This document shows, one piece after another, positions 19,820-31,698 of a stretch of DNA of 64,000 nt. The DNA comes from Reichenbachiella sp. GTDB taxonomy: Bacteria > Bacteroidota > Bacteroidia > Cytophagales > Cyclobacteriaceae. Both the position numbers and the translations under genes were made by a program. The stretch covers positions 4,377,342 through 4,441,341 of the forward strand of contig NZ_OZ247585.1 in assembly GCF_965233835.1 (NCBI RefSeq). The letters run 5' to 3'. The notes under the pieces were generated by a model, which was not told the origin of the DNA, ran no database searches, and was given only the letters and a program-made list of their open reading frames with translations. Every line of letters starts with the position of its first letter. The stretch's first letter is position 1.

Positions 19820-22500
19820 TGAATCCTCAACCGCCCAAATGGGCTGATCGGTTCCTAGCCTGGTTTTGTCATCCAGATTTACTCGAAGATTTGCAGGGTG
19901 ACCTCTATGAGATTTTCGAACAGAAACTACTTCAGGGTCAGAAGAGAAAAGCTCAATATCTCTACATCTGGCTGGTACTACGCTCCTTTCGTTGGTCAGC
20001 CTTAAAAGAAAATCAAAAACTCAAAAACTCATTTTTTACCATGACAAAAAACAACATAAAAATCGCCATCAGGGTGCTTTGGAGAGACAAATTCAATAGT
20101 GCCATCAATTTGCTGGGTCTTACCCTTGGCATTACTTGTTTTCTACTTCTAGGGCTCTATGTCAAGCAAGAAGTTACTTACGACCACTTTCACAGCAAAA
20201 AGGATCGCATCTATCGCAGCTGGGTTAAAGAGGATTATGGAGATGGGCGGGAGTTTTTCAATTCACACACACCACTACTCTTTGAAGCATTGTTTGAAGA
20301 TAACTTTCCTGAAGTCGAAAGGTCCGTTCAGTACATTGAACATGACTTTTTGGTCGGACGCAATGAAAATCGAATTGATGAAATCATTGCGTTGGTAAGC
20401 CCTGACTTCTTAGAAGTCTTCGATGTTCCTCTGATTTATGGAGATAAATCTACTTTTCTACCTTCTAGAGAGCACATTGTTATTTCACGAAGTTATGCCG
20501 AGAAGTATTTTGGGTTGGAGAACCCAATGGGCAAGACGATAGCTGTTGAAGTGGACACCTTAATTCATGACTTGACTGTCTCAGCAGTATTTGAAGATTT
20601 TCCCGTCGAGTCTAGTATCCGCTTTGATATGGCAATCTCTGCCGAAAATGGTCGTCGGATTTACCGAGATCGACTATATACTTCATGGTTTAATATAATA
20701 CCAGAGACCTATGTTCTTCTCAAAGAAGGCACATCTATTTCGTCTATGGAAAGTAAAACACAAGACGTAGTCTTGAGCCAAGGGGTAACCTACGGAGATG
20801 AGCCACTGGAAAAAGATCAATACCAAATCGGATTTCAACCTTTGACGGATATTCATTTGAATCCAGACATTCCATTAGGTACTGCGCCAGTAGGCAATCC
20901 TCAATATGTAATCATCCTTGGTGCTATTGGCTTCCTAGTATTAATCATGGCCTGTGTCAATTACACTACCCTGTCAGCAGGCCAATCTTTAAAAAGGTCA
21001 AAAGAAGTTGGAATGCGAAAAGTACTTGGTGCTTCTAAACGTACTTTGATCTATCAATATTTAAGTGAAAGCTTGGTGTTGGCCGTAGTAGCTATGACGA
21101 TCGGTACAGTAATTACATTTTTCTTAATCCCAACATTCAATGCCCTGACGGGCACAGAGATTTTCTTTCAATTCGAATGGTGGCACACGGGAATTTATTT
21201 GGCCATTGGGCTTGCCATAGGACTACTCGCTGGCGCCTACCCAGCACTCATTATTACTGCCTTTAAAACCATTAATATTATCAATGGAAGTAATCAGTCC
21301 ACTGGAAAACTCGCCGCGCGAAAAGGACTCGTCATTTTACAGTTCTTGGTGACAGTTTTTCTAATTAGCACAGTTCTAATCATGCGCCAACAAATCAATT
21401 TCCTGATGGACAAAGATCTTGGCTACGATTATAAAGCTGTAATCTCTTCTGAATTGCCCATAGACCCCAACGGCCGTGGAATCCGTGATGCACTCAAATC
21501 GGGTCTGGACAACGGGGAGTTGCTAAAAGCAAAACTTGAAAAGCATCCCAAAATATCAAAAATAGCCATTGGCAACCACCTTTTCGGCTCCAATGGCTGG
21601 ACGCATGTAGCATTTAATGATGATAATGATGACTTCAAATGGTTCCGTTTGTTGGTAGTCAATGCTGAATATTTGAGTGCATTCAACATTGAACCGATAC
21701 AAGGTAGAAATTTTGAAGTAGGCAATGGGTTAGACAAAAGGCAGTCGGTAATCATCAATCAAAGTGCAGCCAAATATTTTGGTTTAGAAAACCCCGTTGG
21801 AGGAAAATTGCCTGGCCCTGAATTTGGTGAGCATCAAATCGTTGGGGTTGTAAAAGATTTTCACTATTCCTCTCTACATACTGAAGTAGAGCCTTTAGTA
21901 ATCGTCCAAAACATTATGCCAATATTCGCTGGTGTTACGGATGCGGATGTGAAGGATTCATACTCACCTAAAATTGTATTTACCTATAGCGGAAATAATT
22001 TACACGATGCCATCGAGATTTTGGAAAATGAATGGGAGACCACATTTCCATCCGAAGCACCAAACTTCGAATTCATAGATGATCGCATCAGCAGACAGTA
22101 CGAAAGCGAAGCACGTCTAAATAAGCTTATCGTGATTGCCACAATCCTCTCCATACTTATTGCCGGCCTTGGCCTGTTTGGATTGATTATGCTGGTCGCC
22201 AATAGTAAAATCAAAGAGATCGGCATTCGAAAAGTCATGGGGGCTTCTCCACTTTCGATATTTCAGCTACTCATCAAGGGATTTGTTATTCAGCTAATAC
22301 TCGCGATTGTATTGTCTGTACCTTTAACTCTCTACCTAATCAATCAATGGCTGGAAAATTTTGCTTATCGAGTAGATATCGGCAGTTTGCCATTTGTTCT
22401 TAGCGGGCTTGCGACGCTTCTCATTGCTGTGGCCGTGGTGGTGTATCATACCATTCAAGCCACGCGAATCAATCCCATTGAGTCCTTGAGAGTAGAGTAA
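19819..22500 (+). CDS. Duplicated orphan ABC permease (ADOP/MacB-like, with permease prefix domain)
   Basis: PPKWADRFLAWFCHPDLLEDLQGDL prefix; two MacB/FtsX halves, KRSKEVGMRKVLGA and KIKEIGIRKVMGA. Confidence 0.9.
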   Translation: MNPQPPKWADRFLAWFCHPDLLEDLQGDLYEIFEQKLLQGQKRKAQYLYIWLVLRSFRWSALKENQKLKNSFFTMTKNNIKIAIRVLWRDKFNSAINLLGLTLGITCFLLLGLYVKQEVTYDHFHSKKDRIYRSWVKEDYGDGREFFNSHTPLLFEALFEDNFPEVERSVQYIEHDFLVGRNENRIDEIIALVSPDFLEVFDVPLIYGDKSTFLPSREHIVISRSYAEKYFGLENPMGKTIAVEVDTLIHDLTVSAVFEDFPVESSIRFDMAISAENGRRIYRDRLYTSWFNIIPETYVLLKEGTSISSMESKTQDVVLSQGVTYGDEPLEKDQYQIGFQPLTDIHLNPDIPLGTAPVGNPQYVIILGAIGFLVLIMACVNYTTLSAGQSLKRSKEVGMRKVLGASKRTLIYQYLSESLVLAVVAMTIGTVITFFLIPTFNALTGTEIFFQFEWWHTGIYLAIGLAIGLLAGAYPALIITAFKTINIINGSNQSTGKLAARKGLVILQFLVTVFLISTVLIMRQQINFLMDKDLGYDYKAVISSELPIDPNGRGIRDALKSGLDNGELLKAKLEKHPKISKIAIGNHLFGSNGWTHVAFNDDNDDFKWFRLLVVNAEYLSAFNIEPIQGRNFEVGNGLDKRQSVIINQSAAKYFGLENPVGGKLPGPEFGEHQIVGVVKDFHYSSLHTEVEPLVIVQNIMPIFAGVTDADVKDSYSPKIVFTYSGNNLHDAIEILENEWETTFPSEAPNFEFIDDRISRQYESEARLNKLIVIATILSILIAGLGLFGLIMLVANSKIKEIGIRKVMGASPLSIFQLLIKGFVIQLILAIVLSVPLTLYLINQWLENFAYRVDIGSLPFVLSGLATLLIAVAVVVYHTIQATRINPIESLRVE

Positions 22501-22516
22501 AGTAGAATAAAACAAG

Positions 22517-22560
22517 AAAGTCAGCCTTTGGTAAATAATTCCACCAACGGGCTGACTTTT
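22517..22560. terminator. Hairpin between convergent genes
   Basis: AAAGTCAGCC...GGCTGACTTT inverted repeat. Confidence 0.6.
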
Positions 22561-22580
22561 CTATAACCTCAAATTGTGTC

Positions 22581-22919
22581 TTATTGCACTACCACTTTAT
22601 ACATACTTTCCAAATCACCCTGTTTATGATGAATCATGTATATTCCTTTTTTCCAATTCCCAACAAATATGGAAAGCTCAGTGAAGGTCTCATTGACCTG
22701 ATAAACGTTGCGCCCGGAAAGGTCCATGATTTCCAGCCGTGATGCTTGTCCATCAAACTGGATTCGCTTAATATTCAAATACTCAACCGCTGGGTTAGGG
22801 AAAATTTCAATCGTACTCGTAAGGCCTAAGTCTTCTTCCAATTCTAATTGATTTTGTCCCCAGCTGTTGTTTAAACAAGTGATTAATCCAAAAAATAAAA
22901 CTATCGTTAACCTTTTCAT
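22581..22919 (-). CDS. T9SS type-A C-terminal-domain protein with almost no passenger domain (112 aa)
   Basis: Start reassigned to MKRLTIVLFF. Sec signal, about 15-aa linker, then IFPNPAVEYLNI...IMDLSGR...KGIYMI...KVVVQ. Confidence 0.85.
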   Translation of the reverse strand: MKRLTIVLFFGLITCLNNSWGQNQLELEEDLGLTSTIEIFPNPAVEYLNIKRIQFDGQASRLEIMDLSGRNVYQVNETFTELSIFVGNWKKGIYMIHHKQGDLESMYKVVVQ

Positions 22920-22946
22920 CCTATCATTTTCCTTTCTGATAAATAC

Positions 22947-22972
22947 AACGAGATCGTCTTCACTCTCCCTAC
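22947..22972 (-). promoter_or_regulatory. ECF-type promoter of the CTD-only gene
   Basis: Minus strand GTAGGG-N16-CGTT, same geometry as the promoter at 23601. Confidence 0.7.
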
Positions 22973-23009
22973 TTGATTTCAATTGAACCAAAGATTGTTC
23001 CAATTTTTT

Positions 23010-23050
23010 TCAAGGTGATTGTTTCGTCTATCTCAAGGTGATTATATTTG
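23010..23050 (+). promoter_or_regulatory. 11-bp direct repeat plus TAnnTTTG promoter upstream of the ECF sigma gene
   Basis: TCAAGGTGATT at 23010-23020 and 23033-23043 (12-bp spacer), abutting TATATTTG at 23043-23050. Confidence 0.6.
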
Positions 23051-23072
23051 GAATTCAATACCCTAAAGAACT

Positions 23073-23600
23073 ATGGATCAACCCTCTGTTTGCGAAGAAC
23101 AGTCCTTTACTCGCTTGCATCAATCCCATGCTACCGCTCTTCAGAATTTTTTATTCTATCGATTTGGCAGTTTGGAAAAAGCAAAAGATTGTGCACAAGA
23201 AGCCTTCGTCAGACTTTGGAACAACTGTAGTAAAGTAGCGTTTGACAAAGCGAAGAGCTTTCTGTTCACTACAGCTAACCGTATCTTTTTAGATGATGCG
23301 GCTCATCAAAAAGTAGTACTGAAGTTTGAAAAAAGAAGTGACACTGCAGAGGCTCAATCAGAAACCAACCCTGAATTTCTATACCAGATTGATGAATTCA
23401 AAGAACAGTTAGAGTCTGTTGTCTCAAACCTCCCAGAAAAACAGAGAGTAGTCTTTTTGATGAGTAGAATAGACAAAATGAAAAATCAGGAGATCGCAGA
23501 TACCTTGGAAATTTCGGTAAAAACAGTAGAAAAACATATCACATCGTCTTTAAAATCAATTCGAGCCAATCTAGACGAACTAAATCATTTTTCAATTTAG
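23073..23600 (+). CDS. ECF RNA polymerase sigma-70 factor (FecI-like)
   Basis: AKDCAQEAFVRLW, SFLFTTANRIFLD, LPEKQRVVFLMSR, EIADTLEISVKTVEKHI. Confidence 0.93.
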   Translation: MDQPSVCEEQSFTRLHQSHATALQNFLFYRFGSLEKAKDCAQEAFVRLWNNCSKVAFDKAKSFLFTTANRIFLDDAAHQKVVLKFEKRSDTAEAQSETNPEFLYQIDEFKEQLESVVSNLPEKQRVVFLMSRIDKMKNQEIADTLEISVKTVEKHITSSLKSIRANLDELNHFSI

Positions 23601-23626
23601 GTAGGGTTTCCAAAACGTTAGCCGTC
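23601..23626 (+). promoter_or_regulatory. ECF-type promoter of the fecR-TBDR operon
   Basis: GTAGGG-N16-CGTC immediately after the sigma stop codon and 25 nt before the FecR ATG. Confidence 0.7.
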
Positions 23627-23651
23627 ATAACATCAGACAAACGAAAAAGTC

Positions 23652-24572
23652 ATGGAAAATAATCACAAAGACAAAGATGCAATTCTCGCCCAATGGCTGA
23701 ATGGAGACATCTCAGCAGATGAAGCTGAAAAGCATTTGTCTCGTGATGAATTCATGAAGTATCAACAAATATTAGATGAAGTAGACACCTGGACACCGAG
23801 TTTAGAAGCATCTACTATCAACCTGAACGAAATTTTAAATTCAAAGAAAGAGGCCAAGGTCGTAAAAATGACTACTTGGAAATATGCTTCTATAGCGGCA
23901 GCCATAGTCTTAGCTGTTTTCCTTGGCCCTAGACTCTATGAGTCAATAACAACCGTTACTTATGAAACGGCTTATGGAGAAACACAGACCATAGATTTAC
24001 CAGATGGCAGCTCAACACTTTATTTAAGTGCCAATTCCAAAGTGAAATGGAAAAAAGGAGATTGGAAAAGCGGCAAAAGAATATTGAACCTGGAAGGAAA
24101 AGCCTACATCGAAGTGCCAGAAAAAGGGAGCTTCGACGTTATTACATCTGAAGGAACGGTCTCAGTCCTTGGTACCCGATTTACCGTCTATCAAATGGAG
24201 CAAGCGCTACATGCAGTATGCTATGAAGGTCGTGTAAAAGCTACAGCTCCAAAGGGCGAATCTGTAGAGCTCTCCAAAGGAGAATCTAGCTTGTTTTTCG
24301 AAGGATTATGGAGTGCCAAAAGGTTCTTTGATGCAGCCTATCCGGAATGGATTCAGGGGCATTTAGCCTTTGACAATGCACCGCTCAAGCAAGTATTAGA
24401 TGAACTATCATCCAACTATGGCATCAAGGTTGACATTGGAGGAATTAATCTGGCCCGACGATTTACAGGATCTATCCCTAAGGATAATCTTGATCAATCC
24501 CTGAAAATTATCTTCCCAACCTTGGGCATCTCTTATCGATTGGACGACAATACCCTATATTTGTCCGAGTAA
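23652..24572 (+). CDS. FecR-family anti-sigma factor
   Basis: Single TM (WKYASIAAAIVL), LPDGS.LYLSANS, LEGKAYIEV, VSVLGTRF, L.FDNAPLKQVLDEL. Confidence 0.92.
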   Translation: MENNHKDKDAILAQWLNGDISADEAEKHLSRDEFMKYQQILDEVDTWTPSLEASTINLNEILNSKKEAKVVKMTTWKYASIAAAIVLAVFLGPRLYESITTVTYETAYGETQTIDLPDGSSTLYLSANSKVKWKKGDWKSGKRILNLEGKAYIEVPEKGSFDVITSEGTVSVLGTRFTVYQMEQALHAVCYEGRVKATAPKGESVELSKGESSLFFEGLWSAKRFFDAAYPEWIQGHLAFDNAPLKQVLDELSSNYGIKVDIGGINLARRFTGSIPKDNLDQSLKIIFPTLGISYRLDDNTLYLSE

Positions 24573-24582
24573 GAGAGAAAAG

Positions 24583-27132
24583 TTGAAAATGCGATATTTA
24601 TTGATCACACTTTTGGTGTGCGCTGGGATGAGTCTATTATATGCGCAACAAAAAGCGCCATTTCTGGAATCCATCAAACATTATGAGTCCACATTGGACG
24701 CAAAATTCTCCTACGATCCAGTCATTTTTTCTGAAATTGATCAAGATTTTGACACCAACCAGAGCTTTCCTGAGTTTACCTCTTTGGCTGAATCTCAGCT
24801 ACCCATCAAGATTCAAAAAGTAGGTGAAAGTTATTATACCATATCATTGACAGAAAGCACATATGCCTTGTCGCTGTCAGATTCATTGGCCTCTAAAGCC
24901 ATAGAACCTCCATTTTTCTTTCTAATCAATTCCGTTCCGGTAGATATAAAGCTTAGTGACGAAAAGGCCACTTTCCGATATAAACCCAGCATGAAAGACA
25001 CGTTGATTGTCTATGTACCCGGTTTTGAAAAAAAGGTAATTCCTGTTTGTCAATTGTTGAACTCAAAAACTCTCGACATACCACTAATGACACAAACTTA
25101 CCTGTTGAGTGATGTGGTAGTAGAAGACTACGTTACCAAAGGTATCAATCTGGATCCGGCTAATCAGAAAATTTCGATTGACGTCAAGGATCTTCCCTTA
25201 TTGCCCGGAGAAACCGATGGCGACATCTTTGCTTCATTGGCTGCCCTTCCAGGGATCACTACACCAGATGGGCGCCCTGGAAATCTATTCATCAGAGGAA
25301 CTTCTCCTGATCAATCGCTCATTCTTTTTGACAATATCCCGATGTACCACCGCGGTCATTATTTTGGAACTATTTCCCCTTACAACCCAAAAACGGTCAA
25401 TAATGTAGAAGTTTTTAGAAGTGGATATCATCCTAGAATGGGCGGAAGAGTCGGTGGTGCTGTTTTTATTAACTCAGAACAAGAGATAAACAATGATTCA
25501 CAATATGGTATTGGTGCGAATACTCTTTATGCCATGGCCTATGCCAAAACACCATTAGCTAACAATAAGATTGGGTTAGTTGTGGGTGCTAGGCATTCAT
25601 ACCCTTCAAGTATCAGATCACCAAAGCTTGACGCAATTACCGAATCAGTTTTCGCCGCTACTGGAATATCCGATGATCAAGGAAACATTGGAACCGACGT
25701 GCGAGTTAAATTCCAGGATTACCATGCCAAGGTTATATTAAAACCCAATGAAAAGCATAAGGTCACGATATCTGGAATATATAGCGACTCTGACCTAAGA
25801 TATGAGTTAATTGATGCGCCTCCGGGAATTGATGAACATATAGATTTTGAAAACTATGGAGTAAATACTGTATGGAGCTTTAAGATTGATCAGAAATGGA
25901 CAGGGTCCTTAATAAACACGCTGGGTCAATATACTTATTCTACAGAATCACCCGTGCCCATGGGCGAGCAAAAAACAGAAAACACTATTCAAGATTACAA
26001 TGCACGATTGGAGTTATCTCAAACGAACCATCAATCTCATCAACTTCAATTAGGTGTGGACTACCAACTACAGTCATCCGCACTAGACTATAGCAATATC
26101 ACTAGTCAAATAACTAGTGGAAATATGGAATCTGTTGTTCGAAATGAGTCAGTTGATGCTCACACTATTTCCCCTTTTGCAAACATGCATTGGTTTGGCA
26201 AACAAATAAATCTTCAGCTGGGCTTGAGAGGTAGTTTTTATAGCCCAACCCAAACTTTTTATTTATCACCTAGAGTTTCAGCCAATTACTCAGTAAATCA
26301 ATCGTTTGACTTAAAGGCCTCAGCTGGACGTTATCATCAGTTTCTCAGTCAAGTCCGAAATTTACAAATAGGTACTGGAGGATTTGATAATGCGCTTTGG
26401 CAATTAGCTTCTCAGGACCAAGGAAGCGTAATTTCTGGTTCTCAATTCATGACTGGCTTCATGTTAAACAAAAACCGATGGCTATTAGATGTGGAAGCCT
26501 TTTATAAAGTGGCTAATAACATCACCTACTATGAAAGTCTATTCTTTGACAATACCAGCGACTTTTTTACGGCTGACAATGTGCTTTATGGCATTGATAC
26601 CTATCTCCGAAAGGAAATTACCTCGTCCACTTCTGCTTGGTTAGGTTATTCTTACGGAGGGTCTAAAATTACGTTGGACACTACCAATCAAACCACCTAC
26701 AAATCAAAATACGTTCAACCGCATGTCTTTTATATCGGCAGCGCCTACCAAAAAAACCGATGGAAGTTCTCAGGGGTTTGGAAATACGGTTCAGGACTAA
26801 ATGGCCAATCCCTGGAAATTGCCTATGTACGAGGAATATATGAACGAGCACAAGACAATCGCCCTCCTGGATCCCCAAGAGCCCCAGATCCATTTGCCGA
26901 CCAACCAGAGCGCTATCCTAATGTACACTCTTTGGATTTATCGGTTTCTTACAAAATACCCCAAACTGAGCAACGCCCATGGTCTGTTTCATTCGGGTTG
27001 TCTGTCATAAATGTATATGATCAGGAAAATCTAATCGATCGAGCATTTCGAGGAAACCCTCCTCCTCCGCGATGGATCGACAGAAATGCCCTAGGGTTTG
27101 CTCCAAACCTGATGATTATGTTTGAGTGGTAA
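24583..27132 (+). CDS. TonB-dependent outer-membrane receptor/transducer
   Basis: Signal peptide, STN-like N-terminal region, plug (GETDGDIFASLAALPGI, LFIRGTSPDQSLILFDNIP), beta-barrel ending in an aromatic residue (MFEW). Start may be ATG 24589. Confidence 0.9.
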   Translation: MKMRYLLITLLVCAGMSLLYAQQKAPFLESIKHYESTLDAKFSYDPVIFSEIDQDFDTNQSFPEFTSLAESQLPIKIQKVGESYYTISLTESTYALSLSDSLASKAIEPPFFFLINSVPVDIKLSDEKATFRYKPSMKDTLIVYVPGFEKKVIPVCQLLNSKTLDIPLMTQTYLLSDVVVEDYVTKGINLDPANQKISIDVKDLPLLPGETDGDIFASLAALPGITTPDGRPGNLFIRGTSPDQSLILFDNIPMYHRGHYFGTISPYNPKTVNNVEVFRSGYHPRMGGRVGGAVFINSEQEINNDSQYGIGANTLYAMAYAKTPLANNKIGLVVGARHSYPSSIRSPKLDAITESVFAATGISDDQGNIGTDVRVKFQDYHAKVILKPNEKHKVTISGIYSDSDLRYELIDAPPGIDEHIDFENYGVNTVWSFKIDQKWTGSLINTLGQYTYSTESPVPMGEQKTENTIQDYNARLELSQTNHQSHQLQLGVDYQLQSSALDYSNITSQITSGNMESVVRNESVDAHTISPFANMHWFGKQINLQLGLRGSFYSPTQTFYLSPRVSANYSVNQSFDLKASAGRYHQFLSQVRNLQIGTGGFDNALWQLASQDQGSVISGSQFMTGFMLNKNRWLLDVEAFYKVANNITYYESLFFDNTSDFFTADNVLYGIDTYLRKEITSSTSAWLGYSYGGSKITLDTTNQTTYKSKYVQPHVFYIGSAYQKNRWKFSGVWKYGSGLNGQSLEIAYVRGIYERAQDNRPPGSPRAPDPFADQPERYPNVHSLDLSVSYKIPQTEQRPWSVSFGLSVINVYDQENLIDRAFRGNPPPPRWIDRNALGFAPNLMIMFEW

Positions 27133-27212
27133 TTATTTACAAATAACTCCATCATAGCTTTGAAAGAATTAAGGAAAGCACTTAACTTGATTCTTTCTAA
27201 AATGGAGCCTTC

Positions 27213-29027
27213 ATGTTTAAAAAGCTAGCCAAGCAATCATTCTTTTTGTTTACAACAATTTTTGCTTTATGGACTTCACCTTACCAAACCAATGGACAGA
27301 ATAGAATAGACAGTCTGAAACAACAACTCAGTCTACAATCGTCTGATAATCTGAAAATCAGTTTACATGTACAACTTGGTCAGGAGCAAAGGCTCATTGG
27401 CCAGCACGACTCCAGCCTTATACATTTTCAACACGCACTTGATTATTATCGGTCCAATGATAGTAAAAAGAAGGAAGCCGATCTTATCGTCGAGATCGGA
27501 GAAACGTATAGAAACAATGATGTTCCAGATCGAGCCATGGACTTTTTTCTACAAGGAATCAAAATTTATGAGCCGCTACAGGATTATGCTGGAATTGCAA
27601 CAACCTACAATAAAATGGCCGACCTTGTTATGCGCCAAAATGATTACCCACGGGCAAAAATATATTCAAATACAGTAAAGGAAATTTTAGCACTTTCGCC
27701 CTATTTTCCTGCCAGAGCACATTGGTATATGAATAGAGGTAGAATATTCAATAGCGACATGCAGTTTGACAGTGCGATTCACTATCATCAACTCGCCATT
27801 GACCTGTTTGACTCTCTTCACATGTATCACGACAAGGGGAGAGCACTTCACAATAGGGCCAACTCCCTGCGAGAATTGGGAAGGTTTGACGAAGCTATGG
27901 AGCTATGCCAACAAGCGCTTGATATTCCTGAACTTAGTGCCAATATCAAAAGTCAAATATTCACCATTCTCTTAATTGCCAACATATATCAAGACACCAA
28001 TCAACTAGAAAAAGCCGTTGAATATTCCTTAAAAGGACTCGAACTGGCCACCAAACACAACTTTATGGATCGCAAGCGTGTAGCGCTGCTATACCTTTCT
28101 CAGACTTATGAAAGAGCCCGGTCATACGATTCAGCCTACTTTTATCACAAGCGGTATGCTAATATGATTGAATCCATTTTTGACAAGGAAAAATACGAGC
28201 AGGTTAATCGTTTAAACACGCTATATGAAACAGAAAAGAAAGAGCAAACCATCGCTATCCAGCGAGCCAACCTTGCACTACAAGAAAACCGACAAAATCA
28301 GCTCTATTATGGCATAGGTTTTTCTATTTTAATAGGAGCCATTCTATCAATTGCTTACGTGCAAAAGACCCGTACCAACAAGCTCTTGAGCCAACAAAAA
28401 TTGGAGATAGAAAAACAGAACAGTGAACGAGAAGTACTGTTGAAAGAAATTCACCACCGAGTCAAAAACAACCTTCAGGTTATTTCAAGTCTACTGAGTA
28501 TGCAATCCAGAAAGATGAAAGACAGTGATGCTAAAGTAGCTGTAAAAGAAGGGCAGAGTCGTATCAAATCCATGTCTCTCATTCATCAAAAGTTGTATAG
28601 CGAAGGCAACCTTTCAAGGATTAATATGAAGGAGTACATTGATGACCTAAGTGGCTTCTTATTCAAAAGTTACAAGACTGAAGCTCAAATTGAGCAATTG
28701 GTAGAAGCTGATAACGTTTCTCTAGATGTTGACACGGCAGTGCCACTCGGACTGATTATCAATGAACTAATTTCTAATGCCTTGAAATACGCCTTCGAAC
28801 CTGAAGAGCAAGGTCAGGTATCCATTAGACTACATAAAAAACAAAAGACTTATGAGCTTCAAGTAGCGGATACTGGTAAAGGTCTGCCCAAAGATTTTGA
28901 TAAAAAACAGAGCATGGGGATGCGTCTGGTTCATATTTTAGTTGACCAATTGGATGCAGATTTACAAATTGATCAATCAAAAGGTTTATTATTTACAATA
29001 ATTTTTACTGATAAAAGAGCTGCATAA
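27213..29027 (+). CDS. TPR-containing sensor histidine kinase (HisKA_2 type)
   Basis: Signal peptide, TPR helices, TM, LLKEIHHRVKNNLQVISSLL, NELISNALKYAF, DTGKG. Confidence 0.92.
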   Translation: MFKKLAKQSFFLFTTIFALWTSPYQTNGQNRIDSLKQQLSLQSSDNLKISLHVQLGQEQRLIGQHDSSLIHFQHALDYYRSNDSKKKEADLIVEIGETYRNNDVPDRAMDFFLQGIKIYEPLQDYAGIATTYNKMADLVMRQNDYPRAKIYSNTVKEILALSPYFPARAHWYMNRGRIFNSDMQFDSAIHYHQLAIDLFDSLHMYHDKGRALHNRANSLRELGRFDEAMELCQQALDIPELSANIKSQIFTILLIANIYQDTNQLEKAVEYSLKGLELATKHNFMDRKRVALLYLSQTYERARSYDSAYFYHKRYANMIESIFDKEKYEQVNRLNTLYETEKKEQTIAIQRANLALQENRQNQLYYGIGFSILIGAILSIAYVQKTRTNKLLSQQKLEIEKQNSEREVLLKEIHHRVKNNLQVISSLLSMQSRKMKDSDAKVAVKEGQSRIKSMSLIHQKLYSEGNLSRINMKEYIDDLSGFLFKSYKTEAQIEQLVEADNVSLDVDTAVPLGLIINELISNALKYAFEPEEQGQVSIRLHKKQKTYELQVADTGKGLPKDFDKKQSMGMRLVHILVDQLDADLQIDQSKGLLFTIIFTDKRAA

Positions 29028-29041
29028 TTTATTTTAACAAA

Positions 29042-29761
29042 ATGATTAGTGTACTCATAGTTGAAGATGAATTGATCATCGCCAATGATCTGCAAGACAT
29101 TCTGGAATCCAATGATTATCATGTCATTGGCATTGCCAAAAGTTATGACCTGGCTATCAAAAAGCTTTCAACAGAGCAGCCAGACATTGTACTCCTCGAC
29201 ATCCAAATTGATGGAACCAAGGATGGTATTGATTTAGCCAATACGATTAAAAATGAGTACGAACTACCATTTATTTTTATATCATCCCATACAGACCGAG
29301 CGACATTAGATCGTGCCAAAGAATGTAAACCATATGGTTTTTTGGTCAAACCTTTTGAAGATGATGATGTTCTTGTGGCTGTAGAAATGGCATTAAGCAA
29401 CTTCTCCAAAGAACAAAACAACAACGAAGACAATCAAGACTTCACCATCAATGAAAGCCTCTTCATTAGGCAAAAGAATACGGCCGTGAAGGTCGCCTAC
29501 GATGATATTCTGTACGCTAGCTCAGATGCCAACTACTGCACACTCTATACAGAAGACAAAAAGTTTGTCATGCGGTCAACGCTAAAAGAGTTGGAAAACA
29601 GGTTAGATGACAAAAGATTTTTTCGGTGCCACAAATCGCATTTAGTCAATCTGAATCACCTCTCATCTGTGAACAGTGAGTGCATTACAATTAAGAACGT
29701 CGAGCTCCCCATAGGACGTGACCAGCAAGCTTTACTCATGAGCCAGATTAATAAGATATAA
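29042..29761 (+). CDS. LytR/AlgR-family response regulator (REC + LytTR)
   Basis: VLIVEDE, PDIVLLDI, FLVKPF; LytTR domain with FFRCHKSHLVNL. Confidence 0.95.
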   Translation: MISVLIVEDELIIANDLQDILESNDYHVIGIAKSYDLAIKKLSTEQPDIVLLDIQIDGTKDGIDLANTIKNEYELPFIFISSHTDRATLDRAKECKPYGFLVKPFEDDDVLVAVEMALSNFSKEQNNNEDNQDFTINESLFIRQKNTAVKVAYDDILYASSDANYCTLYTEDKKFVMRSTLKELENRLDDKRFFRCHKSHLVNLNHLSSVNSECITIKNVELPIGRDQQALLMSQINKI

Positions 29762-29786
29762 AAAAGGCCACACAAGTGGCCTTTTT
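29761..29786. terminator. Bidirectional intrinsic terminator
   Basis: AAAAAGGCCAC-ACAA-GTGGCCTTTTT. Confidence 0.85.
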
Positions 29787-29808
29787 TATATCTATTACAA
29801 TTTTCCAA

Positions 29809-31698
29809 CTAATACGCTCTCACAGTCACACCCTTCATAAAGTTTACAAAGGCCTTGTTCACTACTCTATTTCCTCCAACAGTTGGAAAGTCACCAGTAA
29901 AGTACCAGTCTCCTTCATGATCCGGACATGCTTTGTGTAAATTATCCACTGATTGGAAAATCACTTCCAATTCAGCCTTCATGCCTTCAGGGCGAACAAT
30001 ATCTGTAATTTTCGCTGAAACTTGATCTGCTGTAAATGGCTTATAGAGCTCTTGCACATGATTTGGTGCATCTGGATTGCCTACGGACTCTTCACATTTG
30101 GCTAGCACTTCTTCTAGCATGTACGATTTATCGTTTTCCTCCAATAGTTCGAGTACAGCGCGGAAAGCCACAAAGTCCTTCATCCTACTCATATCAATTC
30201 CATAACAGTCAGGAAATCTAATCTGAGGTGCTGAAGAAACAATCACGATTTTCTTTGGTTCCAGTCGATCCAGTAAAGTCAAAATACTCTTTTCAAGTGT
30301 AGTTCCTCGTACGATAGAATCATCAATGATCACAAGGTTATCTACGCCTTTATTCACCACTTCGTAAGTGGTATCATATACGTTAGCGACTAATTCATCT
30401 CTAGAAGAATCATCAGCAATGAAGGTTCGAAGTTTGGCGTCTTTGATGACCATTTTTTCCACCCTTGGGCGGAAAGAAAGTACATCCTCTAGGTCTCCAC
30501 TATGCGGTTTGCCTTCCAGTATTATTTCTTTGCGCTTGGCAACCAAGTACTCATCCAGTCCACTCATGAGACCCAAAAAGGCAGTTTCCGCCGAATTAGG
30601 AATAAATGAGAAGATAGTATTCTTCAGGTCAAAGTTGACCGACTCAAGCACTTTCGGTACAAGCAACTCACCTAGCTTCTTTCTTTCACGATAAATATCA
30701 GGATCAGAACTTCTAGAGAAGTAGATTCTTTCAAAACTGCATGACTTCTTTGGCAGCATATCTATAAACTGCTCTTCTGAGAAGCTACCATCTTGATTGA
30801 TAATCAATGCGTGGCCAGGAGTGATTTCTTTAATATCTTGATAAGCACAGTTAGTAGCCGTTTTAATGGCTGGCTTTTCAGAAGCCACAATTACTACTTC
30901 TTCATCCGCGTAATAATAAGCGGGACGAATACCGGCAGGGTCGCGAGCAACGAAAGATGCCCCATGTCCTACCATACCCGCCATAGTATATCCCCCATCA
31001 AAATCTTTACAAGATTTTTTTAGGATGTTAATCATGGAAAGTTCTTCCTCTATTTTTTTGGTAATATCCTTATTAGATAATTTGAATTTGTGTTTGTCAA
31101 AAATCTCTTGATTCTCTTCATCCAAAAAGTGACCGATTTTTTCCATCACCGTAACGGTGTCTGTCTTTTCTTTGGGGTTCTGACCCAATGAGATAAGGAT
31201 ATCAAACAGCTCATCCACATTGGTCATGTTGAAATTACCGGCGACTACGAGGTTTCTAGATCGCCAATTGTTCTGGCGTAGGAATGGGTGACAGCTTTCA
31301 ATACTATTCTTTCCATGTGTTCCATAGCGCAAGTGCCCTAGCCAAACTTCCCCTGTAAATCCATAATTCTTTTTGAGCCACTCTTCGTCTCGGAATTTCT
31401 CCTTCCCTCCTTCTTTAAGTGCCTTGTTGAATTTTTTGGCTACCTTATCAAATATCTTTTGCAAAGAATTGGCATCGATCGATCGATACCTACTTATGTA
31501 TCTATAGCCAGGTTCGAGTCCCAACTTGATATTGGCAATTCCTGCCCCATCTTGGCCTCTATTCTGCATTTTCTTCATCAGAAGCAGCAGCTTATTGGCT
31601 CCATAAAGGGGCGTGTTGTACTTGTCAATGTAGTATTGAAGGGGTTTTCTCAAACGGAGGTGCGCTATCCCGCACTCGTGTTTAATAGGGTCGCTCAT
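29809..31698 (-). CDS. purF: Amidophosphoribosyltransferase
   Basis: Short propeptide then CGIA (Ntn Cys), QNRGQDGAG, GHLRYGTHG, VIIDDSIVRGTT. Confidence 0.95.
   Translation of the reverse strand: MSDPIKHECGIAHLRLRKPLQYYIDKYNTPLYGANKLLLLMKKMQNRGQDGAGIANIKLGLEPGYRYISRYRSIDANSLQKIFDKVAKKFNKALKEGGKEKFRDEEWLKKNYGFTGEVWLGHLRYGTHGKNSIESCHPFLRQNNWRSRNLVVAGNFNMTNVDELFDILISLGQNPKEKTDTVTVMEKIGHFLDEENQEIFDKHKFKLSNKDITKKIEEELSMINILKKSCKDFDGGYTMAGMVGHGASFVARDPAGIRPAYYYADEEVVIVASEKPAIKTATNCAYQDIKEITPGHALIINQDGSFSEEQFIDMLPKKSCSFERIYFSRSSDPDIYRERKKLGELLVPKVLESVNFDLKNTIFSFIPNSAETAFLGLMSGLDEYLVAKRKEIILEGKPHSGDLEDVLSFRPRVEKMVIKDAKLRTFIADDSSRDELVANVYDTTYEVVNKGVDNLVIIDDSIVRGTTLEKSILTLLDRLEPKKIVIVSSAPQIRFPDCYGIDMSRMKDFVAFRAVLELLEENDKSYMLEEVLAKCEESVGNPDAPNHVQELYKPFTADQVSAKITDIVRPEGMKAELEVIFQSVDNLHKACPDHEGDWYFTGDFPTVGGNRVVNKAFVNFMKGVTVRAY

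Follow-up and report, generated by a model that had tools for sequence, protein, structure and literature searches.

The closest described counterparts of the locus reported here are the three-part cell-surface signaling (CSS) systems FecA-FecR-FecI, FpvA/FpvR/FpvI-PvdS and FoxA/FoxR/FoxI. The locus occupies positions 22581-27132 of a 64,000-nucleotide stretch of Reichenbachiella sp. DNA (NCBI RefSeq assembly GCF_965233835.1, contig NZ_OZ247585.1, positions 4,377,342 to 4,441,341 of the forward strand; the whole stretch is called the window below). It comprises genes for an extracytoplasmic function (ECF) sigma factor, a FecR-type regulator and a TonB-dependent transducer or receptor (TBDR), together with a divergent gene, hereafter the CTD-only gene, whose product carries a type IX secretion system (T9SS) C-terminal domain (CTD) and no passenger. 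The three parts, the gene order and the combination of FecR with FecR_C are shared with the described systems, and the receptor model, which has an N-terminal STN-like domain, matches the full-length versions of FpvA and FoxA best. As in the fec system, an ECF promoter is predicted before the receptor operon, and the sigma gene here is apparently on a housekeeping promoter. Unlike in the Fec and Pseudomonas CSS systems, fecR too would be transcribed from the predicted ECF promoter, the model places an additional carboxypeptidase-regulatory-like domain between STN and plug, and the predicted regulon holds YHYH, DUF6702, SCO1 and T9SS cargo genes, not siderophore genes. The explanation that we favor, at a probability of about 0.55, is that this locus is a metal-responsive CSS module belonging to a family in marine Cytophagales and Flavobacteriales, with the CTD-only gene as a lineage-specific member of its regulon.

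Trans-envelope signaling in the polysaccharide utilization loci (PULs) of Bacteroides similarly combines an ECF sigma factor and FecR with a TBDR that has an STN plus carboxypeptidase-regulatory-like N-terminus, as the receptor here is predicted to have. In contrast to the SusC-like PULs, the present locus has no SusD partner and no carbohydrate-active enzymes (CAZymes), and its receptor is ~850 aa long. Among metal systems, OprC, which with NosA represents the copper TonB-dependent transporters, is one of the top structural matches of the receptor, no better than siderophore receptors. Elements reminiscent of such systems and of the DUF6702 sequesterases are the His-rich plug motif YHxGHY, the N-terminal His of DUF6702 and the CxxxC of SCO1.

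On the side of secretion, PorA (PGN_0123) of Porphyromonas gingivalis likewise links a small protein with a T9SS CTD to an ECF sigma pathway. PorA, at 246 aa, includes a FimH-like lectin domain, and its place is upstream of PorXY-SigP, whose two-component system controls T9SS genes; its CTD binds PorV, and the CTD-containing form persists on the surface (PMC7712824). The CTD-only protein, by contrast, has no passenger or lectin-like N-terminal domain and its gene is a predicted sigma target; the two may be functionally analogous. Closer in size is Fjoh_0547 of Flavobacterium johnsoniae, which the passage on it in the same source (PMC7712824, from Lauber et al. 2018) describes as a 112-aa CTD protein reported to be secreted even in sprA and porV mutants. 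According to this passage, very small CTD proteins are thus made and exported. The two proteins share a size class by description only, and the passage reports no ECF, FecR or TBDR link for Fjoh_0547.

A signaling triad beside a stand-alone CTD gene

Four genes were confirmed by open reading frame (ORF) listing and translation with Pfam and NCBIfam scans:

22581-22919, minus strand: CTD-only gene, 112 aa from the conserved ATG at 22919; PF18962, TIGR04183
23073-23600, plus strand: ECF sigma factor, 175 aa; Sigma70_r2, Sigma70_r4_2, TIGR02937
23652-24572, plus strand: FecR-type anti-sigma factor or sigma regulator, 306 aa; PF04773, PF16344 (FecR_C)
24589-27132, plus strand: TonB-dependent transducer (TBDR), ~847 aa when counted from its conserved ATG, with TTG 24583 as the opening codon of the ORF

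The CTD-only gene is divergent from the sigma gene, which is followed by fecR and then by the TBDR gene. The sigma factor, which has sigma-70 regions 2 and 4 only, matched PF04542 and PF08281 and scored 77.4 bits against TIGR02937 (cut-off 42.9) and 113.9 bits, under the cut-off of 126.4, against the Bacteroidetes subfamily TIGR02985; it is 87-98% identical in the seven closest orthologues. FecR scored 57.7 bits against PF04773 and 43 bits against FecR_C, the C-terminal STN-binding domain. The full sigma-FecR-TBDR triad is present in 69 of 80 family loci (see below). The first-pass annotation of this region, made from the sequence alone, was right to recognize a genuine CSS triad.

A shared promoter motif before the CTD-only gene and fecR

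The pattern GTAGGG-N16-CGTY occurs twice in the window, against 0.07 occurrences expected from shuffles. Both sites are conserved, in agreement with the earlier proposal that the CTD-only gene and the fecR-TBDR operon carry the same ECF promoter. The predicted promoter elements are as follows:

22947..22972, minus strand: promoter GTAGGG-N16-CGTT, 27 nt upstream of the CTD-only ATG
23601..23626, plus strand: promoter GTAGGG-N16-CGTC, which immediately follows the stop codon of the sigma gene and precedes fecR by 25 nt
23043..23050, plus strand: TATATTTG, match to a -7 box, 23 nt upstream of the sigma gene

Before the CTD-only gene, the GTAGGG and CGTTGTAT / CGTT blocks are kept in the aligned intergenic regions of eight loci and the rest of the spacer diverges. 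When the strict pattern GTAGGG-N15-17-CGTY was re-checked at this position in three loci, it scored in L023 and L026 and not in L025. Of 18 orthologous loci inspected, 15 keep the fecR promoter, GTAGGG(T)-N16-CGT(C/T), at TBDR identities as low as ~33%; three of the four most distant loci (27-31% TBDR identity) have degenerate variants or no clear match. The sigma gene is itself preceded by a conserved block, AAGGTGATTATATTTGG, in eight loci. Because the conserved TATATTTG matches TAnnTTTG, which we take to be the Bacteroidota housekeeping -7 box, the sequence suggests that the sigma gene is read by the primary sigma factor.

From the conservation and nonrandom placement of the motif, we infer that this ECF sigma factor reads GTAGGG-N16-CGTY. 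A different, more global ECF sigma factor could read the motif instead, with the adjacency of the CTD-only gene being incidental, since the genome encodes at least nine ECF sigma factors and the assignment of sigma to promoter goes by position only. We consider this quite unlikely: the motif directly follows the stop codon of this sigma gene in the 15 loci mentioned, it scored before fecR in 31 of the 80 family loci, it precedes the gene divergent from this sigma gene in other genera as well, and no match lies beside any of the other eight ECF paralogues in the genome. The CTD-only gene very probably belongs to the regulon of this sigma factor, because it shares the conserved promoter and adjoins the sigma gene, as a single copy, in every one of the eight genomes that carry it.

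A predicted regulon of probable metal-handling character

Genome-wide, a spacer of N15-17 was allowed. Thirteen of the 29 matches obtained lie outside ORFs of at least 150 aa, whereas 174 permuted control motifs averaged 1.8 such matches and reached 7 at most. Four of the 13 sit in rRNA operons, and for an intergenic match at 1134124 no ORF starts within 400 nt. The genome is predicted to hold about ten targets, with sites 19-99 nt upstream of the target genes. Apart from the locus itself, the targets comprise a YHYH+fn3 lipoprotein gene followed by that of a 209-aa protein, a DUF6702 gene followed by a YHYH lipoprotein gene, a YHYH lipoprotein gene followed by those of a MORN-like protein and SCO1/SenC, a PepSY lipoprotein gene, a second TBDR gene, the genes of two ordinary T9SS cargos (706 and 1290 aa) and, doubtfully, an E1 dehydrogenase gene.

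Each of the three YHYH lipoprotein loci (L040, L041 and L045, at ~721 kb, ~737 kb and ~3.558 Mb of G000 C1) carries the motif, and the partners of YHYH there are DUF6702, the 209-aa protein, which is DUF6702-like with a C-terminal transmembrane segment, or the MORN-like protein with SCO1/SenC. The SCO1/SenC protein carries a CPGICP motif (CxxxC), the YHYH protein carries two YHYH motifs, and the DUF6702 copy begins with His after the predicted cleavage site. DUF6702 has been described as a Ni/Co/Cu-binding "metal sequesterase" that uses an N-terminal His (PMC12537917), and a 3-His site has been predicted for YHYH (PF14240; bioRxiv 10.64898/2026.10.18.759936). The three loci are therefore a candidate regulon for the acquisition of copper or another metal and provide a context for PF14240. 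Our best guess is that the stimulus is a transition metal, most likely copper, because of this regulon content; SCO1, the MauG-like proteins found in the wider family and the His-rich proteins favor copper.

The first-pass annotation had stressed that no SusD, CAZyme or iron-uptake gene is present. This holds for the immediate neighborhood, as no SusD, CAZyme or classical iron/siderophore gene lies near the triad and the TBDR gene is instead followed by genes for a histidine kinase and a LytTR regulator. It does not hold genome-wide, since the predicted regulon includes putative metal-handling genes and a second TBDR, and both regulon and family neighbors point to metal handling.

The motif is also kept upstream of orthologues of the 706-aa and 1290-aa cargos, in three and two relatives, respectively; PDB sequence searches with these two cargos gave nothing beyond the CTD. 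The genome has 71 CTD matches and encodes the T9SS machinery, with adjacent genes for PorV (NF033710, 488 bits, cut-off 250) and PorU (NF033707, 1239 bits, cut-off 420) at G000 C1 450557-455066. No T9SS component genes were seen in the predicted regulon.

Receptor family and its neighbors across genomes

The receptor alignment was scanned against species-representative genomes, and neighbors were counted within +/-7 kb. As a result, 80 family loci were obtained from Reichenbachiella, Ekhidna, Marinoscillum, Imperialibacter, Fulvivirga, Roseivirga and some Flavobacteriales. Near the triad, YHYH genes are found in 27 of the 80 loci, DUF6702-like genes in 12, SCO1 in 7 and CCP_MauG in 6. In several loci, such genes occupy the position divergent from the sigma gene and are preceded by the motif: YHYH in L030, L062 and L101 (as YHYH-MORN-SCO1), DUF6702 in L064, L066 and L071, and CCP_MauG in L034 and L097; in Ekhidna the arrangement is DUF6702-YHYH. 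Two Marinoscillum loci (L067 and L070) have, upstream of the orthologous sigma gene, a gene for a 1153-aa YHYH protein with its own T9SS CTD. Because of this family-wide neighbor content, the module appears to be of old origin and linked to putative metal-handling proteins, of which a part would be exported by the T9SS. The CTD-only gene, present in only five of the 80 loci, all from Reichenbachiella, is probably a later addition, a maintained and lineage-specific regulon member in this "divergent target" slot.

Separately, Marinoscillum furvescens DSM 4134 (L077, 4750-4974) has a 74-codon CTD frame with neither a start codon nor a signal peptide, ~520 bp upstream of the orthologous sigma gene. 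Since related Marinoscillum carry the 1153-aa YHYH-CTD gene at that position, this stub looks like a relic of passenger loss.

The regulon is sharply defined and testable, and it would belong to a previously undescribed CSS family of marine Cytophagales. It ties YHYH (PF14240), DUF6702-type binders, SCO1/SenC and MauG-like peroxidases to one TonB-dependent transducer, offering a route to function, probably in copper acquisition, for several domains of unknown function.

The receptor

By sequence, the receptor is poorly described by existing models. In Pfam only its plug was matched (Plug, 36.3 bits) and the barrel was not; no NCBIfam model or PDB sequence profile matched, nor did SusC-type models. 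A profile of 20 orthologues found no solved TBDR among PDB sequences and gave only a weak match (0.45) to the 93-aa TBDR N-terminal domain 6ytc. The AlphaFold2 (AF2) model, built from a 20-sequence alignment, has a predicted local distance difference test (pLDDT) score of 78. Residues 24-89 form a beta-alpha-beta / beta-alpha-beta-beta domain (pLDDT 76-88) and residues 92-168 a carboxypeptidase-regulatory-like beta-sandwich, followed by a flexible linker of low pLDDT, the plug and a full barrel, which is seen as a long DSSP run of beta strands (uncounted). A TonB-box-like DVVVED lies in the linker (residues 172-187), with a conserved LxxVxVExY as judged by eye.

In Foldseek, the receptor model matched many TonB-dependent transporters at E 1e-22 to 1e-24, best of all full-length FpvA (2o5p, E 3.8e-24) and FoxA, with OprC close after. 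The alignments, gaps included, cover ~930-950 columns for the STN-bearing FpvA and FoxA, as compared with ~745 for STN-less receptors. The receptor had been annotated as STN-bearing. Its predicted fold and the Foldseek matches to FpvA and FoxA agree with this assignment, whereas Pfam gave no match to STN (PF07660) even at E<=10 with three N-terminal fragments, so that the N-terminal STN-like domain is one supported by predicted fold only.

In the plug, the motif IP[IML]YHxGHY is invariant across the receptor family and is followed by [FY]GTISPYN[PQ]; it is kept even at 28% overall identity. The YHxGHY region may be a metal- or ligand-binding apex.

Architecture and distribution of the CTD-only protein

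The CTD-only protein consists of a putative Sec signal peptide (~21 aa), a linker (~15 aa) and a type-A T9SS CTD (~75 aa). It scored 46.6 bits against Pfam Por_Secre_tail (PF18962, cut-off 27) over profile positions 1-75 of 75, with the match ending at the last residue of the protein, and 40.5 bits against TIGR04183 (cut-off 23). The ATG start of the 112-aa form is conserved and that of a 140-aa frame from a TTG is not. Judged from sequence and alignment, the N-terminal form, namely MKR, a hydrophobic stretch and SWG/Q, is kept in 10 family members, and in all 10 a linker of 15-28 residues, variable in sequence and length, precedes the CTD. No passenger domain is present, only this unconserved, predicted-disordered linker, which bears out the description of the gene as cargo-less. 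The orthologue alignment has 27 invariant columns, of which 26 fall within the CTD. The AF2 model, with an overall pLDDT of 59, shows beta strands with pLDDT ~70-76 in the CTD and values of 32-34 in the linker; a Foldseek search with this low-confidence model gave no match under E 0.1.

The gene is present, always as a single copy beside the sigma gene, in eight of 41 related genomes, which are exactly the eight with a TBDR identity of at least 61%; searches of the remaining 33 at E<=1e-12 did not recover it. The CTD-only family forms three clusters in 1.84 billion representatives, beyond which the score falls from 161 to 64 bits, and the closest non-family CTDs there carry unrelated passengers (subtilase, FG-GAP, F5/8-C and Ig-like). 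When a generic CTD model was used on the 80 family loci, small CTD ORFs beside the triad were recovered only in the five Reichenbachiella representatives, plus the start-less stub of M. furvescens. The linkage of CTD-only genes with triads is thus invariant within the eight genomes and confined to a single genus among the family loci.

Elsewhere in the genome, outside the window, about six more short ORFs (~110-160 aa; G000 C1 1454383, 1556779, 3280234, 4578937, 4656302 and 4068045) follow the plan of signal peptide, short linker and T9SS CTD, with scores under the Pfam cut-off in two cases. At 3845025 there is a seventh short CTD frame, which has no signal peptide and resembles the tail end of a larger gene that has been broken. 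The other short CTD ORFs in the genome are all more than 100 kb away from any ECF or FecR gene, and CTD-only genes are therefore not generally linked to CSS triads. A T9SS substrate without a passenger, which the first-pass annotation had singled out as unexplained, does depart from ordinary cargo, yet it is less of an oddity given these similar ORFs and the F. johnsoniae case. Passenger-less CTD proteins are common in genomes and essentially unstudied. The present one offers a clean natural example, conserved, with apparent purifying selection on the CTD and a specific regulator; it has a predicted inducing pathway, hence it is experimentally tractable.

Selection on the CTD and the origin of the gene

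For the CTD-only gene as a whole, the approximate ratio of nonsynonymous to synonymous substitution rates (omega) lies at 0.10-0.18; the CTD has values of 0.06-0.09, and the signal peptide with the linker 0.23-0.9. In the same analysis, omega is ~0.07 for the receptor and ~0.06 for FecR. In three genome pairs, the last 75 aa of the CTD-only protein are 71/63/63% identical. The CTDs of the two cargos predicted to be co-regulated with it reach 60/41/41% and 45/49% in the same pairs. The passengers of these two cargos are 65-83% identical versus 41-60% for their CTDs.

Judging from these ratios, the CTD-only gene is under purifying selection and not a decaying relic, which also speaks against the concern raised at the outset that it might be the decayed remnant of a longer T9SS cargo. 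The corresponding scenario, in which a cargo such as a YHYH-CTD protein lost its passenger and left a functionless stub on an old ECF promoter, has a real parallel: passenger loss next to an orthologous sigma gene does happen, as the 1153-aa Marinoscillum gene and the 74-codon stub of M. furvescens indicate. For the Reichenbachiella gene we nevertheless regard it as very unlikely. Its start codon, signal peptide and frame are kept in eight genomes at a synonymous divergence (dS) of at least 1, and it also lies on the opposite strand. A specific origin from the Marinoscillum YHYH-CTD gene was also considered and is not borne out, as the CTD scores only 38-40 bits against those tails, below the best generic CTD matches (50-64 bits).

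The constraint on the CTD also bears on the idea that the linker peptide is the product, released or lipid-anchored after T9SS export and PorU cleavage, with the CTD a mere carrier. The architecture, exactly signal peptide, peptide and CTD, and the mostly polar or acidic linker residues would suit such a role, and in four of the eight closest loci the genes downstream encode a two-component pair of the LytTR type, which in Firmicutes is typical of peptide sensing. We hold this reading to be improbable, because selection preserves the CTD and not the linker, which varies in length and sequence with omega up to ~0.9; moreover, the kinase/regulator pair is missing from the other four loci and a direct repeat before the sigma gene (see below) is not conserved.

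The hypothesis of the first-pass annotation was that the CTD, either secreted or set free by sortase, or else its short peptide, serves the transducer as ligand, partner or lid, in a loop that reports T9SS or envelope status to the sigma factor. The tight, invariant adjacency and shared promoter in eight genomes are compatible with it, as is the stronger constraint on this CTD than on the two cargo CTDs compared, and PorA acting on PorXY-SigP is a precedent for a CTD protein that feeds an ECF pathway (PMC7712824). The comparative evidence runs the other way. The triad is kept without the CTD-only gene in 75 of the 80 species-representative loci; in the receptor, no clade-specific insertion or indel separates the gene-carrying clade from the others, and the plug is ~82% identical across this divide; and the linker is unconserved. 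As for a report on T9SS status, the regulon and family neighbors resemble metal handling and not T9SS components, and PorV and PorU are not preceded by the motif, the lone match lying inside the PorV ORF, probably by chance. Neither the ligand role nor the T9SS-reporting loop is thus supported, and we assign this hypothesis a low probability.

Proposed mechanism and its weight

In the explanation that we favor, the metal-responsive module with a lineage-specific CTD-only member, a signal at the outer-membrane transducer would pass through the STN-like domain to FecR, by analogy with FecA/FecR/FecI and FpvA, and FecR would release the ECF sigma factor. The sigma factor, itself apparently produced from a housekeeping promoter, would then read the GTAGGG-N16-CGTY sites, of which the one before fecR-TBDR would provide positive feedback and the others would define a dispersed regulon. 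The CTD-only product would most likely be exported by Sec and engage PorV and the T9SS through its CTD. Because only the CTD is conserved, and more so than the CTDs of the two co-regulated cargos, the CTD fold itself is probably the working part. On this basis and by analogy with PorA, we tentatively suggest, at clearly less than even odds, that the CTD-only protein is a co-induced accessory interacting with PorV or the T9SS, and neither a peptide carrier nor the inducing ligand of the receptor. A more specific version, in which the stand-alone CTD belongs to the secretion or signaling apparatus instead of being a cargo and is an ECF-induced, PorV/PorU-binding beta-sandwich that gates, primes or reports T9SS export of the regulon cargos, or docks on the transducer, appears unlikely; if true, it would couple a metal-sensing CSS system to type IX secretion.

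Several points weigh against the favored explanation. The identity of the metal is a guess from the neighbors, the YHYH family is uncharacterized, and in Foldseek OprC is not set apart from siderophore receptors. Proteins like SCO1 can work as thiol reductases, too. The use of the promoters, the specificity of the sigma factor and the induction are all deduced from sequence, as is the export of the CTD-only protein by the T9SS. The 29 motif matches in the genome compare with ~26 expected, so that the bare count is not enriched and only the placement is. The omega values are approximate because dS in these comparisons is at or above 1, and the comparison of CTD conservation comprises two cargo proteins and three genome pairs. 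Finally, all occurrences of the CTD-only gene trace to one clade and hence to one evolutionary event, leaving the co-occurrence with the triad without independent replicates.

Flanking genes and repeats

The remaining features around the locus are the following:

22517..22559, no strand: inverted repeat of 10 bp, AAAGTCAGCC / GGCTGACTTT, with a 23-nt loop, from repeat search and sequence
27213-29761, 3' of the TBDR gene: a TPR-HisKA_2 histidine kinase of 604 aa with a LytTR response regulator of 239 aa
19349-22500, upstream, convergent with the CTD-only gene: PadR-family regulator (156 aa) and 893-aa FtsX/MacB-type permease

The kinase and LytTR regulator were considered as part of the module and rejected; because they adjoin the triad in only four of the eight closest loci, they are probably an independent two-component pair. 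An exact 11-bp direct repeat, TCAAGGTGATT, occurs before the sigma gene at 23010 and 23033 (spacing 23), and its second copy overlaps the conserved housekeeping -7 box region. The repeat was also considered as a LytTR site for the downstream regulator and rejected, the first copy being conserved in no relative. No Rfam RNA family was found within 22300-29900. The inverted repeat sits between the convergent 893-aa permease gene and the CTD-only gene and is likely a bidirectional terminator, although a simple terminator scan gave no call there. Close relatives keep the PadR/permease pair, and paralogues of the permease turn up again near distant triads (L032, L037 and L039).

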